Positions 10,051-27,167 of a stretch of DNA of 64,000 bases are shown here, piece after piece. The first letter of the stretch is position 1; every line of letters begins with the position of its first letter. The notes below the pieces were generated by a model. It was not told the origin of the DNA. It was given only the letters and a program-made list of their open reading frames with translations, and ran no database searches. A program made the position numbers and the translations under genes. The stretch covers positions 19,330 to 83,329 of the forward strand of contig DATGYZ010000007.1 of assembly GCA_035297425.1 (NCBI GenBank), written 5' to 3'. This DNA comes from Bacteroidales bacterium. Its GTDB lineage: Bacteria > Bacteroidota > Bacteroidia > Bacteroidales > VadinHA17.

Positions 10051-11010
10051 ATGGATCTCGAAAAGCAATTTTTGATTGCGAAGGGAGCGATCAAGCGTTT
10101 GCCGGGCATGCAAAAAGAGTACAGCTACACGGGCGGCACTATAGAAAGCAGGTATTGTTATGCGGTCTGGCTAAGACATTTGCTGAAATGGAGCAGGTTC
10201 AGAAAAGGTGTCCCACAAAGTGTTGCAGAACTTGGTCCGGGCGATTCGCTTGGAACAGGTATTGCGGCATTGCTTTCCGGAAGTTCAAAACTTTATGCAC
10301 TTGATGTTATAAAATACTGGGATAATGCGCGAAACCTGAGGATCCTGAATGAACTTGTGGAACTCTTTAAAAGAAGGTTCCGTATTCCTGACAACTTTGA
10401 TTATCCAAGGTTAAGACCAATCATCGATGACTATTCTTTTCCATCAGATATTCTTACTGATGAGATATTGGAGGAGAGTCTAAGTAACCAGAGGATTGAA
10501 CAACTGAGGAATGAATTATCCGATATTGACAACCCTTCAAACAGCATGATTAAGTATAAAATACCCTGGCAGGATCAATCTGTAATTAAAAAAGGCAGTG
10601 TAGATTTTATATATTCACAGGCAACCCTTGAATGCATTGAGGACCTCGAAGGCACATACAGGGCAATGTGCCTTTGGATCAAGCCCGGGGGGCTGATGTC
10701 TCATACGATTGACTTCAAATCGCACAAGCTTACAGCAGAATGGAACGGCCACTGGAAATTCAGTGATTTTGAATGGCGTCTTGTAAAAGGCAGAGATAAG
10801 TTCTTAATTAACAGGGAACCATTGTCAAAGCATATTGAACTTCATAATGCAAATAATTTCTGGATACTCATGAAGGAACCTGCAACATTAAAGAACAGGC
10901 TTGGACGTAATTCCCTTGCATCAAAATTCAGATCATTGTCGGAAGAAGACCTGACAACAAGTGGTGTGTATCTTTTATCGGAAAAAAGCAGGAGTTGCAA
11001 TGATGAATAA
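10051..11010 (+). CDS. class I SAM-dependent methyltransferase
   Basis: Motif I ELGPGDSLGTG and motif II-like DFIYSQATLE. Confidence 0.65.
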   Translation: MDLEKQFLIAKGAIKRLPGMQKEYSYTGGTIESRYCYAVWLRHLLKWSRFRKGVPQSVAELGPGDSLGTGIAALLSGSSKLYALDVIKYWDNARNLRILNELVELFKRRFRIPDNFDYPRLRPIIDDYSFPSDILTDEILEESLSNQRIEQLRNELSDIDNPSNSMIKYKIPWQDQSVIKKGSVDFIYSQATLECIEDLEGTYRAMCLWIKPGGLMSHTIDFKSHKLTAEWNGHWKFSDFEWRLVKGRDKFLINREPLSKHIELHNANNFWILMKEPATLKNRLGRNSLASKFRSLSEEDLTTSGVYLLSEKSRSCNDE

Positions 11011-11391
11011 TCAATTTCCCAATAGCCTCTTAAGGTCAGAAACCTGGGTATCCCACAGGTAGATGGAATCTTCCTTTTCCTCAGCTTCTGCAAAATCAAC
11101 TATAATTAAAGCTACTCCGCCGGTAAGTTCTTCAATGTTGATCCTGAATTCGAAATAGTTTGAATTACTGTTTTCGTTTCCTAACCATTCAAATCGCACA
11201 AGTTTATTTTCCTTTATTGCAGATAACCTGGCTTTCAGTTCAGTTTTATTCCAGAAGAATGTGAACAGGTCTCCGTTGACATTTACCTTATCTGCAAACC
11301 ATTCACTAAGTCCATCAGGGGTACTCAAACGTGAGAATAACACCTTTGGTGAACAGTTGAAATTATACTCCAGCTCATATTTTTGTTTCAT
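11011..11391 (-). CDS. START-like / SRPBCC (AHSA1-type) domain protein
   Basis: LSTPDGLSEWFADKVNV pattern. The ATG at 11391 fits the family N-terminus better than the upstream GTG at 11406 used in the ORF track. Confidence 0.6.
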   Translation of the reverse strand: MKQKYELEYNFNCSPKVLFSRLSTPDGLSEWFADKVNVNGDLFTFFWNKTELKARLSAIKENKLVRFEWLGNENSNSNYFEFRINIEELTGGVALIIVDFAEAEEKEDSIYLWDTQVSDLKRLLGN

Positions 11392-11493
11392 TTCTTTTTG
11401 ATTCACAGAGCCTATACCATCGCAATATAGAAAAAAAAATCAAACTAAAAAACCTTATGTGTCCCGCATATTGCTATTTTGTAACAAACTGTT

Positions 11494-11501
11494 TATATTT
11501 G
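11494..11501 (+). promoter_or_regulatory. candidate -7 box TATATTTG upstream of the tRNA
   Basis: TAnnTTTG match 44 nt upstream of the tRNA 5' end, with a TTTG at 11478-11481. Confidence 0.3.
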
Positions 11502-11544
11502 CACCCGCAAAAGTTCCCCATGGTTCGCACTACGGAGAGCAAAT

Positions 11545-11618
11545 GGCGAGATAGCTCAGTTGGTTAGAGCGCATGATTCATAATCATGAGGTCCCGAGTT
11601 CAATTCTCGGTCTCGCTA
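11545..11618 (+). tRNA. tRNA-Met (anticodon CAT); tRNA-Ile2 (lysidine-modified CAU) cannot be excluded
   Basis: Hand-folded cloverleaf: acceptor ggcgaga/tctcgct (G1-U72), D arm gctc-agttggtta-gagc, anticodon arm catga-ttCATaa-tcatg, variable loop aggtc, T arm ccgag-ttcaatt-ctcgg, discriminator A. There is no 3xGC anticodon stem, so it is not an initiator. Confidence 0.9.
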
Positions 11619-11624
11619 CAACAA

Positions 11625-11662
11625 AAAGCCTTTGCAGCGAAAGCTGCAGGGCTTTTGTTTTT
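11625..11662 (+). terminator. rho-independent terminator after the tRNA
   Basis: Hairpin aagcctttgcagc-gaaa-gctgcagggctt followed by ttgtttttt. Confidence 0.7.
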
Positions 11663-11723
11663 TGAAACATCATGAGCTTGCTCAATGATGTGGAAAAAAA
11701 CAAAAGCACGTAGCCATGCGCAG

Positions 11724-11880
11724 CATGGCAGGGCTTTTTGTTGTAAAGCATCCCCTGCGCAGAATCACCATAGGTAATTCTCAATTGTGTCTGGGTGTCC
11801 TGGTGTCTGGGTGTCTGGGTGTCCTGGTGTCTTGGTGTCCTGGAGTCCATTTAAACCTTTACGCCTTTATGCCCTTTGCA
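11724..11880. repeat. repeat unit A: 68-nt core, 8 period-8 units, 33-nt tail
   Basis: Core catggcagggctttttgttgtaaagcatcccctgcgcagaatcaccataggtaattctcaattgtgtc. Array at 11786-11847 of (C/T)(T/G)GG(T/A)GTC units. Tail catttaaacctttacgcctttatgccctttgca. Confidence 0.9.
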
Positions 11881-11912
11881 CATTACTCCTGCACTTGTAA
11901 TCATCCACCCGG

Positions 11913-12160
11913 CATGGCAGGGCTTTTTGTTGTAAAGCATCCCCTGCGCAGAATCACCATAGGTAATTCTCAATTGTGTCTGGGTGTCTGGGTGTCTGGG
12001 TGTCCTGGTGTCTTGGTGTCCTGGTGTCCTGGTGTCTGGGTGTCCTGGTGTCTTGGAGTCCTGGTGTCCTGGTGTCTTGGAGTCTTGGTGTCTTGGTGTC
12101 TTGGTGTCTTGGTGTCTTGGTGTCCATTTAAACCTTTGCGCCTTTATGCCCTTTTCGCCA
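11913..12160. repeat. repeat unit B: identical 68-nt core, about 19 period-8 units, tail
   Basis: The core at 11913-11980 is identical by eye to unit A. The array at 11975-12124 is 150 bp, ending in five consecutive TTGGTGTC units. The tail differs from unit A by one substitution and a small indel. Confidence 0.9.
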
Positions 12161-12316
12161 CAAAGTGAGAAATGAAATTTGAGTTTTTTCTTGCGGCTAT
12201 TCAGACAAAATTTTGTATTTTCCCAACAGTAAAAGTAATCACGGATAAGCTTTTCTCTAAATTAGTATCTAAGGATCAGCAATTTTCAGATAACCATCAG
12301 AAACAACTGTACAACC

Positions 12317-13402
12317 ATGAAAAACTCATCGAAAGAACTTATCACTGGCAGACGCAATGCATTGAAAATGATCGGTCTTGGAACAGCAGGTATGCTGGCT
12401 GGCGGATTCACAGATATATTGGCTTCAGAACCAAAAGATATGAAACCCGCTCCCAAAGAGAGTATCGTGAAAGGGAACTCCAGCGTTGCATTCACCACCG
12501 GAACTGACAGGCAGGAGATGATCTACAAAGTCATTAAACCTTTTGAACAGGAGATCAGGAAAGGATTAAAAGGGAAACAGCTGATAGTTAAGGTAAACAT
12601 GGTAACGACCAATGTGGAGCTATGTGCTACGCATGTCGACGCTCTAAGGGCATTGCTGGAGTATATGAAGCCAATATATAAAGGCCAGATCATCATCGCT
12701 GAATCAAGCTCCGTGGTAGAGACATCTGAAGGATTTAAAAACTATGGATATCTCGATCTGCAGAAAAACTATAATATTAAATTTGTCGATCTTAATACTG
12801 ACAAGGGATCACCTTTCCATATTGTCGACAGCGATTTTCACCTTGAGGAGATTCCACTGGCACAGACATATGTAGATCCCAATAACTTCATTATCTCATT
12901 GTCAAGGCTCAAAACCCATAACCGTGTTGTGATGACTGCTGGTGTTAAGAATATGGCCATGGGTGCCCCTCTCGTTTTATCAAATGACAGGACAAGCGGC
13001 CGGCATTACAAGAGCAGGATGCATTCAGGCGGAGAACGTTTCCTTCACTACAACATATTCCTTGTTGGTCAGAAAGTACGTCCCGATTTTACGATCATAG
13101 ACGGCGTAGAGGGAATGGAGGGGAACGGACCCTCTTCAGGCACTCCGGTCAACCACAGGATTGCCCTTGCCGGCGAAGATGTAGTAGCAGTAGACAGCAT
13201 GTGTACCAGGCTTATGGGTATACCCATGGACAATGTGGGATACCTGAACTACCTGGCATCAGCAGGGTTCGGGAATGTGGAACGGGAGAAAATCGACATC
13301 ATTGGGAGTGACGATCCTGACAAACATATTATAAAATATAAGATGCACGAAAACTTCCAGACCCAGATTACATGGAAGGATCCGCTGGTCCCACAAAAAT
13401 AA
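12317..13402 (+). CDS. DUF362 domain protein with twin-arginine (Tat) signal
   Basis: Tat motif GRRNALKMIGLG. DUF362 pattern (VKVNMV...THVDALRALLEY, SRLKTHN, GVKNMAMG, IIDGVEGMEGNGPSSG, VAVDSMCTRLMG). Confidence 0.65.
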   Translation: MKNSSKELITGRRNALKMIGLGTAGMLAGGFTDILASEPKDMKPAPKESIVKGNSSVAFTTGTDRQEMIYKVIKPFEQEIRKGLKGKQLIVKVNMVTTNVELCATHVDALRALLEYMKPIYKGQIIIAESSSVVETSEGFKNYGYLDLQKNYNIKFVDLNTDKGSPFHIVDSDFHLEEIPLAQTYVDPNNFIISLSRLKTHNRVVMTAGVKNMAMGAPLVLSNDRTSGRHYKSRMHSGGERFLHYNIFLVGQKVRPDFTIIDGVEGMEGNGPSSGTPVNHRIALAGEDVVAVDSMCTRLMGIPMDNVGYLNYLASAGFGNVEREKIDIIGSDDPDKHIIKYKMHENFQTQITWKDPLVPQK

Positions 13403-13519
13403 ACGTCCAGGCGTCGTGTGTACTTAGCATAACACTACAACTTCCACAACCTGACCTTGACAGCTTTTGCAGCATTTGCATACTACGTTAAAGTGTGTTA
13501 GTTGCCTTATTCTCCTGAC

Positions 13520-13598
13520 AAGGCTTTTGTTGTAAAAGCATCCCCTCTCGAAGAATCACCGAAGGTATTTTTTTACTGGTGTCATGTGTCCTGATGTT
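13520..13598. repeat. degenerate third copy of the repeat core
   Basis: aaggcttttgttgtaaaagcatcccctctcgaagaatcaccgaaggta aligns to the unit A/B core. It is followed by a decayed ctggtgtcatgtgtcctgatgtt remnant of the period-8 array. Confidence 0.6.
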
Positions 13599-14035
13599 AT
13601 GTATCAGTCAACCTCAACAAAAACTACAACCATCTACAACCTTTTACTATTGATTATACAGCCTGCTTTAATTAACCTTTCCAACCAATCAATTCTAAAA
13701 TCCTGAGATTCAAGGGAAAAGGCAATAATTGCAACCTATTGTCAAATAAGCAGATGGAGTGAATTATACAAAGTTTGATAAAAATTATGTAATACACCAA
13801 TATTCATAATGTATGAAATTTATAGTGTGAAATAATAAACAGCAGAATATGGCATAACTCTACCCCATCTTTTGTGAATAATCATACTTTTTATATTAAA
13901 CAAACTGTGGCCTTCTTTTACTAAGGAGCGGTAATCTGTCTACAGTTCAATAGAATGTTCTTAACAAAGAAAAAAGACCAGTGAGCTGGCCGTGGGATAT
14001 TATTTGTCATAAAGTAAACAAAATAATATACAATC

Positions 14036-17000
14036 ATGAAAAATCTCTATGCCCGTAAAAAAGCTATTTCCGGCAAATTATTTTGCTTCTTCGCAGTTTA
14101 CCTGTTTTTTGCAGGGAGCGTTTTTGGACAGAAAACAATAAGTAATTCGTATGTATTTACTACCGGAACCACTGTGTACGGTGGCGATCTGGGCCTAACA
14201 TACACTACAGTAATAGGACCAAATCAGGACAATGCTTCATCAGGCCTTGTCAACTTGCCATTCACGTTCAATTTTTTAGGTCAGTCCTATACTCAGTTTT
14301 CGGTAAATTCTAACGGTCTTATGACTCTTGGAAGTACCCCTTTGACCGGAAATGAAACTTCAAATTCGATGGCGTCCGGCATCCCGGGGATAAAGATTGC
14401 ACCTTATTGGGATGACCTTGCAACCGGTACTACCGGGTATGTAAAACATGCCTATTACAGCGGTACAATGTATATAAATTTCAGGTTAACAGTACCAAAA
14501 AACACCAGTGGTGCTGCCAACGTGGATTTCCAGGTGAGATTGACCGCCAGCGGCGGCATCAGTTTTTATTATGGTTCGACAGCAACACCGTTCCCGTCTT
14601 TTCGCGATTTTCCAACCAATGCAGGAGGATACTCGATCGGAATTGGCAACTCAGATACAGATTTTGCCAGTGTGACCATGACCGGGTTAACCACGGCTAC
14701 CTGTGCATTCGGTACAGCAAATGATGCAAATACTCAAGCTATAACAGGGCCATTTGATATTTACTTTAACCCTGATGTTACTTTGCCGGCTATCTCTGCT
14801 CAAACAATTCCCAACACTCCCGGAACCGGTGACAGAACATTAGTAAAGACAATTACAGATGCCGGTAAAGGTGTCCCGATCACTGGCGAATATGTTCCTC
14901 GTATTTATTATAAAAAGAATGTAGGGGGTACTTATGTATCTACCCCCGGTGTCCTGACATCAGGTACCAGCGCAAACGGGACCTGGACTTTTACTGTTGA
15001 CCATTCATTAGTTGGCGGTGTTGTTCAGGGTGACTTAATCTACTATTATGTGGCTGCACAGGACCAGGCGTTTAATGTTGCATCAAACCCTGCAGGTGTT
15101 GTCGCAACTAATGTAAATACAATTACCACACCCCCGGCCACTCCTTCATCCTATATTATACCTATGGATTTTTCAGGTACCATGACTGTTGGTACAGGCG
15201 GAGACTATCCTTCACTTACGAATCCAGGAGGTCTTTTCGAACAATTAAGCGCCGGAAATCTGACTGGAAATTTAACGGTCAATATTATTTCTGATTTAAC
15301 AGCTGAAACCGGGACGATTCCCTTGCTTGCCTGGACCGAAGGTCCCGGAGGTCCTTTTACAGTTACTATTAATCCTTCAGGGGCAAGAACAGTCTCGGGA
15401 ACCTCAGGAACCAGCGGTCTGATTTATCTGAACGGAGCTAAGAATTTAATTATTGATGGATTGAATTCCGGAGGTAATACACTTACAATTGCAAATACAC
15501 ATGCCTCGAACACTACAATCAATTTCGTCAATGGTGCAAACAATATTACTGTCCGAAATTCAACAATTACCGCTAATGGTGGCAGTGTAATTACATTTGG
15601 AACCGCATTGTCTGGTTCTGTAAACTACAATAATACTATAAGAAACAACATAATTACCTCGGGTACAACCGTGCCATCCAATGGTATCTCTTTTAATGGA
15701 AGTATTACTTATGATTCATACGACAATGTTGTTGACAATAATAAAATCATCAACTTCTCAATATCGGGGATTACTCTAAGCAATGGATATATCAACACCA
15801 CTGTATCCAATAATGAGATATATAATGCAATTCCTTCCGGAACATCATTGAACGGTATTACTCTGGGAACATATTATGGCGCCGGAATTTACAATGTATT
15901 TAATAATTATATCCATGATCTGAATCCTGCCTCAACGACCAGTACAGGAACTATTAATGGTATTTTTTATGGCCAGAGTAGTTACAATACTCCAAACGAT
16001 ATCCTGAATATTTATAACAACGTGATCACGTTGGATGCGACTACTAATAATACTAACATTACTCTAAATGGCATGTGGTTTTCTGGTGGTAATGGCAGTT
16101 ATACACCAGTGGTATATATCTATTATAATTCGATTTATATAGGAGGTATTGGGATAGTAGCAGGAACATCTACCGGTTTAAAAATTGGAGGTGGAAGCTA
16201 TACCGCTAAACATACCATTAAAAATAATGCTATCTACAATGCAAGAACGGGAGGAACCGGAAAACATTATGGAGTTGGATTTTATTACAGTAACTATATA
16301 GTATCAGATTACAATGATATTTATGTAAGTCCGGGGGGAGTTTTCGGCCGTTTTGTTGTTACCGACTATGCCGACTTGGCTGCTTGGAAAACAGCTTCAA
16401 TGCAGGATGCGAATTCAGTTTCAGGAAATCCTGGTTACACGTCAGGCACAGATCTGACACCAGACATCACTAACCCAAACTCTGCGAATCTTGATAATCA
16501 TGGAGTCCCGATTGCCTCAGTAACTACCGATATCCTCGGAAATCCGCGGAGCACCTCAACTCCTGATATAGGAGCATATGAATTCGGCATTCCATATAAA
16601 ACACTCAACCTGAAGCTCTTCCTTGAAGGATTGTATACAGGCGCCGGAGTAATGAACCAGGCAGCTGATGCTGCAGGACCCCACTGGCCGGCCGGCGTTG
16701 CTGATCATATAACAGTTGAACTTCACGATGCAGCAACATATGCCACTGTGGTCCACACAGTTAATGATGCAATACTCTTAACTGATGGCAGTTTGACATT
16801 GACATTGCCAGTCAGCCTGAACGCCAGCTATTATATAACAATCAAACACAGGAACAGTGTGGAGACCACAACGCCAACAGCAAAATCGTTTGCCGGGAGC
16901 GTGATAGATCATGACTTTACCACAGGCGTGGCACAGGCTTACGGAGGGAATCTGAAACTGTCATCCGGAACATCCCTGATATTCACAGGTGATGTCAACC

Positions 17001-26795: not shown

Positions 26796-27050
26796 AAAGT
26801 TAATTTTAGGTTTAAAATGATTTTTCCGGTAATATATTCTAAACCCTGTAATGAATTGATTATTGCGCGGAAAGGACTCCCAACCCTAATTTATAAAGAT
26901 TCTAAATCTAATTCTTCTTTCGGGGAAATTATATTCTGTGACGGCAAACCCGGACAAATATACGACCTCTTATTTTTGAGGCAGATAACCTGGCAAAAAG
27001 AAAATTAAAGAAGAAAAAAATAATCCTGGAGATGTATATACGTTATAAAT

Positions 27051-27107
27051 ATATATTATATTACATATTATAATATATATTATATTACATATTATAATAT
27101 ATATTTT
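27051..27107. repeat. A/T-rich 24-bp tandem repeat, about 2.3 copies
   Basis: tatattatattacatattataata at 27051-27074 repeats exactly at 27075-27098, then a partial copy follows. Confidence 0.85.
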
Positions 27108-27167
27108 ATCATTTGAGCACACATATATTACCTGTTTGTATTTATTATAGGAATTACAGACACTTTC

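Follow-up and report, generated by a model that had tools for sequence, protein, structure and literature searches.

What kind of element combines a core that does not change with a tandem array that changes in length is the question raised by a locus just downstream of a tRNA-Met(CAT) gene in the genome of a Bacteroidales bacterium (VadinHA17 lineage, GCA_035297425.1). The stretch analysed, hereafter the window, comprises 64,000 nucleotides of contig DATGYZ010000007.1 (positions 19,330 to 83,329) and carries two repeat units in which identical 68-nt cores are followed by arrays of 8-nt units. A sequence-only reading had concluded that these units matched no known element type. They were resolved into known kinds, a dispersed short tandem repeat and a tRNA-linked module, and the feature is probably a hypermutable, lineage-specific dispersed microsatellite of the short tandemly repeated repetitive (STRR) or long simple sequence repeat (LSSR) type, carried on duplicated tRNA-linked repeat units. 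Dispersed short tandem repeats, including STRRs, the heptamers of Xanthomonas and Nostoc and TAACTGA, have been recognised for decades. The recent and polar burst described here, module-linked at some loci, gives concrete handles on directed insertion versus slippage.

The repeat unit was about 160 nt in length with three layers, a hairpin module, an octamer array and a block of a second octamer. The feature would consist of two recent copies and one old, decayed copy of this non-coding unit (units A, B and C, Table 1). The first layer would be the tRNA-linked module, in which the 3' half of a bidirectional terminator leads through a U-rich linker to an imperfect hairpin resembling a T-arm, the second the hypermutable microsatellite (YKGGNGTC)n and the third a short block of (GCCTTTNN)n. 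The paired cores described in the sequence-only reading were confirmed by BLAST at 68 of 68 positions and its arrays of unequal length by Tandem Repeats Finder at about 7-8 and 18.6 units. No differences in the 68-nt core against about 8 and about 19 units show that the arrays change much faster than their flanks, in agreement with the length change by slippage that had been proposed. Across the whole duplicated block (11723-11847 and 11912-12036, 125 nt) identity was 94%. The 3' terminus of array B consisted of the five perfect TTGGTGTC units already noted, and the conserved tail, CATTTAAACCTTTRCGCCTTTATGCCCTTT, was located directly after both arrays with one A/G difference between the copies. 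The tail had correctly been included in the unit, while it had been missed that the tail is itself period-8 and forms a second octamer repeat family.

The resemblance of the start of the core to half of a terminator was also substantiated, as the first bases of core A are the 3' half and T-run of the 11713-11729 hairpin, of which only the 3' half is present in unit B. Within core A, stem P1 is formed by 11728-11733 pairing with 11753-11758 around a U-rich loop and stem P2 by 11762-11769 pairing with 11773-11780 (GAATCACC-ata-GGTAATTC). The spacer between the units has no second copy after unit B and units A and B are therefore not a plain head-to-tail duplication. No Logan contig from four soil runs covered this spacer, and no target-site duplication flanking unit A or unit B was found. 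ORFs (open reading frames) crossing the arrays gave no Pfam match, consistent with their earlier dismissal as artefacts, and the feature is non-coding. Contiguous 8-nt units without spacers differ from the 23-50-nt repeats with unique spacers required of a clustered regularly interspaced short palindromic repeat (CRISPR) locus, and the further exclusions of an iteron array and of a classical repetitive extragenic palindrome (REP) were likewise upheld. The tRNA was the sole match to Rfam covariance models across window positions 11000-14200 at E <= 10, and a Bacteroidota-type promoter box (TATATTTG) was read upstream of it.

The element had been taken as local, which was not the case. A regular expression and Tandem Repeats Finder scan of the whole genome (3.44 Mb, 41% G+C, 99% completeness, 37 contigs labelled C1-C37) identified (YKGGNGTC)n arrays at 29 loci on 20 contigs and on both strands, plus seven contig ends, making the array a genome-wide family of at least 29 loci. 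Among 235 units the GG at positions 3-4 was 93-99% conserved and variation was limited to positions 1, 2 and 5, the constancy of GTC being by construction since GTC served as the phasing anchor for the unit list. The octamer family occupies the non-coding flanks of genes, after stop codons, terminator hairpins and the module hairpin. Based on crude ORF-based gene calls (91% coding), the 29 arrays were all intergenic and none was inside a long ORF. A stop codon was located within 15 nt of the array edge for 17 of the 29, compared to 2.4 +/- 1.5 (maximum 9) when random placement in the intergenic gaps was simulated 2,000 times. The G-rich strand was the sense strand in 11 cases, nine of which had a TAG stop relative to a genome share of 16.3% (binomial P = 3e-6), and this TAG sits in phase at the TGG position of the first unit (TAGGTGTC, TAGGGTC, TAGGGGTC, TAGAGTCC). 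About seven cases had the C-rich strand as sense, with an ordinary mix of stop codons 4-15 nt before the array, and five or six further arrays were located directly after a terminator hairpin and T-run (e.g. ...GGGTTTTTTTGTCTTGGTGTC). The adjacent genes were unrelated housekeeping genes whose C-termini seemed normal by eye, including MurF-Alr, PitA, an SPFH protein, LolD-like and TolC-like proteins. This polarity of the arrays at stop codons is statistically solid, and slippage alone does not explain it. A signal carried by single copies of GGTGTC was considered and rejected, with no enrichment after stop codons. Three arrays filled the whole intergenic gap, 0-10 nt from each gene (C18:78411-78550, C27:47706-47822, C32:42180-42225); the C18 array of 140 nt is the entire spacer of two co-directional genes and would therefore be transcribed if these genes form an operon.

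Dispersal and stop-codon adjacency were accompanied by lineage restriction. A 30-nt pattern of four units had 72-75 matches in the genome itself and none in 24 same-genus and 16 same-order genomes, while in approximately 400 other Bacteroidota genomes neither this pattern nor a reversed control was found. The burst is recent, because the 24 congeners are without arrays. In the genomes of 185,579 species the pattern occurred in at least 110 stretches from very diverse phyla, although the ORFs flanking these matches shared no common protein family, and in viral contigs it occurred in 3 stretches versus 3, 5 and 11 for three control octamers of the same composition. Since control octamers were as frequent or more so, the cross-phylum matches represent the normal background of octamer microsatellites and a universal motif was rejected. 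What is exceptional is the octamer burst inside one genome, restricted to its lineage. A literature string search matched TCTGGGTG to the telomere repeat of the yeast Naumovozyma castellii, which was treated as coincidence. Self-complementarity of GGUGUC through G.U wobble pairs was rejected as a basis for hairpins or slippage, as the array RNA folded no better than shuffled sequences (z = +0.4) and DNA hairpins were negligible. G-quadruplexes were likewise set aside, as the canonical motif (at least four G3+ tracts with 1-7-nt loops) is absent from the window arrays; at most three consecutive TGGGTGTC units occur in them and most units (CTGGTGTC, TTGGTGTC) contain only GG.

Not only the arrays but also the core had relatives. 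By alignment and an nhmmer match to a metagenome-derived profile the window core is a diverged member of a family of tRNA-linked hairpin modules, so the search across the genome suggested in the sequence-only reading showed that the core is not confined to the window. About 14 module copies were detected in the same genome with nhmmer, including three loci downstream of tRNA genes, and a degenerate pattern search identified the module in 44 metagenome contigs from wetland, sediment and freshwater. A pattern of the exact core had given no matches in metagenomes whereas the broader module pattern succeeded. A co-oriented tRNA-Met(CAT) was located 110-190 nt upstream of the module in 13 of the 44 contigs, and many contigs had 2-6 module copies, in tandem or kilobases apart. 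The arrangement of tRNA-Met(CAT), terminator and module was seen at C29:203123-203380 and in the metagenome loci L156, L165, L161, L154, L157, L164, L167, L172, L179, L184, L188 and L190. In C29 the initiator tRNA-fMet is at 203123-203195 with the module 116 nt downstream, and the initiator identity of tRNA-Met(CAT) was checked solely in this copy from the genome itself. The tandem units of C33 have a single CTGGTGAC at the position of the array in the window. The module is widespread downstream of tRNA genes, chiefly tRNA-Met(CAT), in environmental Bacteroidota and is often tandem.

The consensus of the module is GCGGMTG-CAGGGCTTTTT-CTTTGTT-AAGCA-CCCC..-GRATCA-[insert 2-55 nt]-TAATCC, in which the 3' half of a bidirectional terminator is followed by a U-rich linker and a GRATCA...TAATYC hairpin. 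The GRATCA...TAATCC hairpin has a conserved C.A mismatch, and the variable insert comprises a stem, tandem G.A pairs, a 2-bp stem and a GNA triloop. The covariation check recommended in the earlier reading gave a positive result when counted on a user-defined structure across 18 copies: 98.4% of cells in the outer helix (P2) were paired, four of its eight pairs had compensatory changes and the covariation score was 0.252 versus 0.111 in shuffles, none of 500 shuffles being as high. Slid controls of P2 were 26-52% paired. Misalignment of the variable insert limited RNAalifold, applied to a MAFFT alignment, to the base of P2. Should the structure function as RNA or single-stranded DNA, its tandem G.A pairs and GNA loops would speak for the + strand. 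Both module stems were retained in the window core. An Rfam search of six module-bearing metagenome loci (E <= 0.1) returned tRNAs and one sub-threshold Thr-leader (29.8 bits, cut-off 55).

Three related copies of the module were followed by a repeat of the tRNA-fMet 3' end starting from AATCC in the T-loop, namely L156 (55 nt including the terminator, z = 31), L165 (z = 9) and the copy at C29:203290-203380 (z = 4). Judged from sequence, the tRNA 3' end and its duplicate look like the direct repeats of an attachment (att) site around an insert of about 150 nt, as would be expected of a miniature element integrated into the tRNA gene. The sole tRNA likeness of the window core is the P2 3' strand TAATTCTC, which matches the T-arm of the adjacent tRNA-Met over 7 nt (AATTCTC). 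As the core is otherwise without tRNA similarity, the att-site reading is drawn from the relatives. The only string resembling the GTTRRRY of an integron attC site (GTTAAGC) was in the unpaired linker, away from the hairpin base and with no RYYYAAC partner, no search for intI having been made. ORFs between modules at seven metagenome loci included TIR-TPR proteins, a glycosidase-like protein and others; no recombinase-like ORF was seen among them by eye from the translations, on which no Pfam scan was run. The large TIR-TPR-like proteins had, by eye, an N-terminal TIR-like motif (DIFISYRQKDN), a transmembrane segment and TPR repeats, and their presence suggests a variable, possibly defence-related island beside the tRNA-Met(CAT) gene. 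Some module-bearing relatives also had heptamer arrays, (GAAGACG)n and (CTTCAGT)n, located approximately 70-150 nt upstream of tRNA-Met(CAT) where this gene was called. Short tandem repeats around the tRNA-Met(CAT) locus therefore recur with different motifs.

The third layer was also found at other sites, with longer (GCCTTTNN)n arrays elsewhere in the genome. A composite of a (YKGGNGTC)n array followed by a (GCCTTTNN)n array was common to four loci with unrelated 5' flanks, which indicates that whole blocks and not just single units have been copied between loci. Period-8 repeats were abundant in the genome, with 41 Tandem Repeats Finder rows compared to 25 for period 7 and 22 for period 9. 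More octamer families (GGCTGAGG, AACACTGA, TACAACAT, GCCTTTCC, GGGTGCTG) were present and were often neighbours in mosaic blocks.

These arrays have the features of an STRR-type family, with head-to-tail units in the 5-11-nt range at many unlinked, intergenic loci near gene ends and a restriction to one lineage. Dispersed G-rich heptamers of this type have been described in Xanthomonas (GGGAATC) and Nostoc/Anabaena (GGGGAYT), where they lie on the sense strand no more than 50 bp from a stop codon and have no known function (Rehm et al. 2015, PMC4692102). Shared with these are the short G-rich units arranged head-to-tail in arrays of variable length, the tens to hundreds of loci per genome, the lineage restriction and the overwhelmingly intergenic position nearer the upstream gene. 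The present family differs in having a unit of 8 rather than 7 nt, an uncultured soil/wetland Bacteroidales host, mostly GG-only units without a four-tract G-quadruplex motif in the window arrays, a stop that is specifically TAG and in phase with the first unit, and a frequent coupling to the second octamer family and, at tRNA loci, to the hairpin module. Heptamer direct repeats of TAACTGA occur in Beggiatoaceae, Cyanobacteria and a few Bacteroidetes (MacGregor 2015, PMC4679880). As with these and with LSSRs (Mrazek et al. 2007), one short motif is found in tandem at many intergenic sites, it is scattered sporadically across the phylogeny, some Bacteroidetes have long arrays and no mechanism of spread has been established. 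Sets of TAACTGA are mostly located just upstream of start codons in the forward direction, whereas the arrays described here are found at stop codons and terminators, and motif and period differ. What is new is an octamer-type dispersed repeat in Bacteroidales with an in-phase TAG, on an uncatalogued and widespread tRNA-linked module.

The module itself resembles REPs and bacterial interspersed mosaic elements (BIMEs), being an imperfect hairpin that is found at transcription-unit 3' ends, in tandem and in mosaics with short repeats. It differs from them in that its copies are direct and not alternating, no GTAG tetranucleotide was found at the foot of its hairpin, neither a REP-associated tyrosine transposase (RAYT) nor an integrase was seen (RAYTs not having been searched for), and the hairpin has a covarying variable internal stem, tandem G.A pairs and a GNA triloop. 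The tRNA 3'-end duplicate from the T-loop that bounds it in relatives is a likeness to tRNA att sites, at which tandem accretion of cis-mobilisable mini-elements (CIMEs) occurs. Contingency loci of Haemophilus, Neisseria and Moraxella also have hypermutable tandem repeats with unit numbers differing between copies. The present arrays are instead neither in an ORF nor between promoter elements recognised by a sigma-70-type scan, and are found at about 30 sites beside housekeeping genes of a free-living, environmental host.

For a dispersed microsatellite on tRNA-linked units, the explanation we prefer, array length would change by slipped-strand mispairing and unequal exchange, and either recombination or a small mobile or integrative unit may have carried copies of whole blocks (module, array and tail, or array and tail) from one locus to another. 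The arrays of the window would then have no dedicated regulatory role for the DUF362 gene and, situated between the terminators of the tRNA and the promoter that follows, may be DNA that is tolerated, selfish or neutral in structure. Several observations weigh against this explanation. The strong covariation of the hairpin argues that the module, at least, is under selection and is not junk, plain slippage leaves the spread of one octamer to about 30 unlinked sites unexplained, the in-phase TAG at the 5' end of the G strand hints at directed insertion or at a function in ending translation or transcription, and the similarity of the window core to the tRNA 3' end was not significant (z = 0.3). 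The unexplained stop-codon polarity and the module with its covariation deserve the most attention. It is unlikely that the arrays are functional gene-end elements whose length tunes their strength, acting on the sense G/U-rich strand as a 3' untranslated region (UTR) element that binds an RNA- or single-stranded DNA-binding protein or stalls exonucleases, or on the opposite strand as a C-rich, U-free, unstructured RNA that loads Rho (a rut-like site) against antisense transcription entering the gene. Stop-codon adjacency far above chance would fit such a role, as would the nearly unstructured C-strand RNA (-0.06 kcal/nt), the maintenance of GG and of the phasing anchor GTC in units otherwise variable at positions 1, 2 and 5, and the transcription of most of the Xanthomonas and Nostoc analogues (PMC4692102). 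However, arrays in both orientations to the adjacent gene (11 G-sense, about 7 C-sense) argue against one single RNA-level role, the G-strand RNA is no more stably folded than shuffled sequences and has no canonical G-quadruplex motif in the window, single GGTGTC copies are not enriched after stops, the 24 congeners do without any such array, and the window arrays are beyond two terminators and outside a 3' UTR. A gene-end role is also favoured by the preference of Bacillus CspB for GTCTTTG/T, a sequence similar to GTCTTGG. Quite unlikely, in turn, is an undescribed small bacterial mobile element with a tRNA-related hairpin head landing at tRNA 3' ends and a microsatellite tail, a layout comparable to eukaryotic tRNA-derived short interspersed nuclear elements with simple-repeat 3' ends. 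Arrays without a module at stop codons would then be truncated copies made by a polar, directed mechanism and the in-phase TAG its footprint, in place of independent slippage. A repeat made by reverse transcriptase was rejected on the weak negative that no ORF in the 99%-complete assembly had a loose signature of reverse transcriptase motifs 4-5.

It is possible, although we do not expect it, that the units are miniature site-specific integrative elements or the decayed att-site ends of such elements, accumulating where tRNA genes end. A module would arrive with every integration event and a displaced part of the tRNA end would be left behind, while the DUF362 gene between units B and C would be cargo and the array a passenger that expanded later. 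As regards the core of the units, this overlaps with the dispersed microsatellite on tRNA-linked units but mobility is put first. It accounts for modules downstream of tRNA-Met(CAT), tRNA-Ser(CGA) and tRNA-Ser(GGA) in the genome itself and of tRNA-Met(CAT) in the 13 metagenome contigs, for the direct repeats in L156, L165 and C29, for modules in tandem and kilobases apart around variable genes such as those for TIR-TPR proteins, for the T-arm match of the window hairpin and for DUF362 orthologues being in a different context in congeners. Against it, no integrase was seen beside the window units or in the translated inter-module ORFs, the window core has no significant tRNA similarity, units A and B have no target-site duplication, and compensatory changes occur in the variable hairpin of the supposed crossover region, which suggests a selected structure and not a decaying att site. 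The remark in the sequence-only reading that length changes would rephase anything bound there corresponds to a phase-variable spacer, in which gain or loss of 8-nt units would shift an operator or a UP-like site against the DUF362 promoter and switch the gene. A period that is not a multiple of 3, array lengths differing between copies and five perfect terminal units suggestive of recent slippage are in its favour. The arrays are not between promoter hexamers in a sigma-70-type scan, elsewhere the same arrays mostly adjoin the 3' ends of housekeeping genes that are unrelated, and the 3' end of array B was the same in three samples, making such a spacer extremely improbable. An assembly or sequencing artefact of the metagenome-assembled genome is more improbable still. 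Seven contig ends are octamer and short-read contigs break at arrays, but many arrays are internal to long contigs and have unique sequence on either side, independent runs of two studies contain the array B/tail junction and the stop-codon/array junction of another locus, and in-phase TAG stops are biological signatures.

The read data on which the last point draws were as follows. Short-read contigs ended at every array, and array-flank sequences alone returned only short unitigs. Candidate RNA runs, of unspecified type, contained the organism at 2-5x depth. Contigs from three runs of two studies began inside the last units of array B and included the junction with the tail, the array B 3' end being identical in all three samples, and the stop-codon/array junction was in contigs from independent runs as well. 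Compared to window positions 11849-11975, soil runs X1, X2 and X5 gave short contigs with a tandem core and no octamer array at approximately 95% identity, which represent either a related strain or an unassembled part of this genome. The core copies in these contigs were 12 nt (ATTCAGATATAA) or 34 nt apart. Arrays of this type break short-read assemblies, as in the octamer contig ends of this genome, and generate spurious ORFs, and they would make good strain-typing markers.

The distance from the end of array B to the DUF362 gene, earlier given as about 190 bp, was measured as 192 nt, and the arrays are located 192-530 nt upstream of its start at 12317, beyond two terminators. No promoter element flanking the arrays was detected in the sigma-70-type scan, which does not cover Bacteroidota promoters, and there was no evidence tying the arrays to DUF362 regulation. 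In two congeners the nearest orthologues of the DUF362 protein (66-67% identity) had no tRNA, module or array upstream of their genes. Several DUF362 paralogues are present in the genome, two of which are 64% and 56% identical. Synteny with the congeners was attempted and abandoned, as the neighbouring genes had no close orthologues and the DUF362 orthologues were in another context. The DUF362 gene is flanked by unit B upstream and unit C downstream, a position compatible with cargo enclosed by accreted att-like modules as well as with a gene simply located in a module-rich tRNA flank.

Table 1. Coordinates of the features at the window locus and of related repeats; positions without a contig label are those of the window
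Feature	Position	Strand	Basis or remark
tRNA-Met(CAT), elongator type	11545..11619	+	ARAGORN; Rfam tRNA 74 bits; compared with the two remaining CAT tRNAs of the genome
Intrinsic terminator of the tRNA, bidirectional hairpin with A-run and T-run	11630..11661 (hairpin 11630-11651)	+	terminator scan
Second terminator-like hairpin, GCCATGC-gca-GCATGGC + AGGGCTTTTT	11713..11739 (hairpin 11713-11729)	+	terminator scan
Core of unit A, diverged copy of the tRNA-linked module	11724..11791	+	fold z = -2.2; family alignment, covariation, nhmmer match with metagenome-derived profile
Array A, ~7-8 units of YKGGNGTC	11787..11848	+	Tandem Repeats Finder (6.9 copies), unit list
Tail A, CATTTAAA, then a short stretch of the second octamer repeat (CCTTTACG CCTTTATG CCCTTT)	11849..11880	+	sequence reading
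Unique spacer between units A and B	11881..11911 (31 nt)	+	sequence reading, self-comparison
Core of unit B, matching core A at 68 of 68 positions	11913..11980	+	BLAST
Array B, 18.6 units, 89% matches, score 214	11976..12124	+	Tandem Repeats Finder, unit list
Tail B, second octamer block, one A/G difference from tail A	12125..12157	+	sequence reading
Gene for DUF362 protein (PF04015), twin-arginine signal	12317..13402	+	Pfam
Unit C, decayed third copy	13500..13610 (approx.)	+	core 13516-13570 82% identical; then degenerate octamers ctggtgtc atgtgtc ctgatgtt
Module copies downstream of tRNA-Ser(CGA)	C26 continuing into C12		
Module copies downstream of tRNA-Ser(GGA)	C29:117796-118004		
Module copies	C29 3' end		
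Module copies	start of C33		4-5 tandem 97-nt units
TIR-TPR-like genes	L162:1001-3304; L183:396-2732; L187:2373-7360; L188:6657-8699; L189:5941-8745		
Heptamer arrays	L157:3310-3386; L184:2824-2900; L176:7158-7251; L167:9121-9151; L190:3246-3277; L162:1-35		
Composites of the two octamer families outside the window	C17:628-760; C37:28300-28451		C37 copy directly after TAG stop
Further octamer family loci	C7:15300-15480; C7:913-963; C17:6753-6778; C36:30330-30470; C18:82767-82859		
A/T repeat loci, examples	C4:43461; C6:85620; C8:77-130; C29:180363-180420		

A second dispersed family in the genome consisted of nearly pure A/T repeats with a period of approximately 24 nt (TATATTATAATATATA...), present in the window at 27043-27109 (C7:46372-46438) and at about ten other loci. 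At C8:1 and C29:180309 these A/T repeats directly adjoin octamer arrays.

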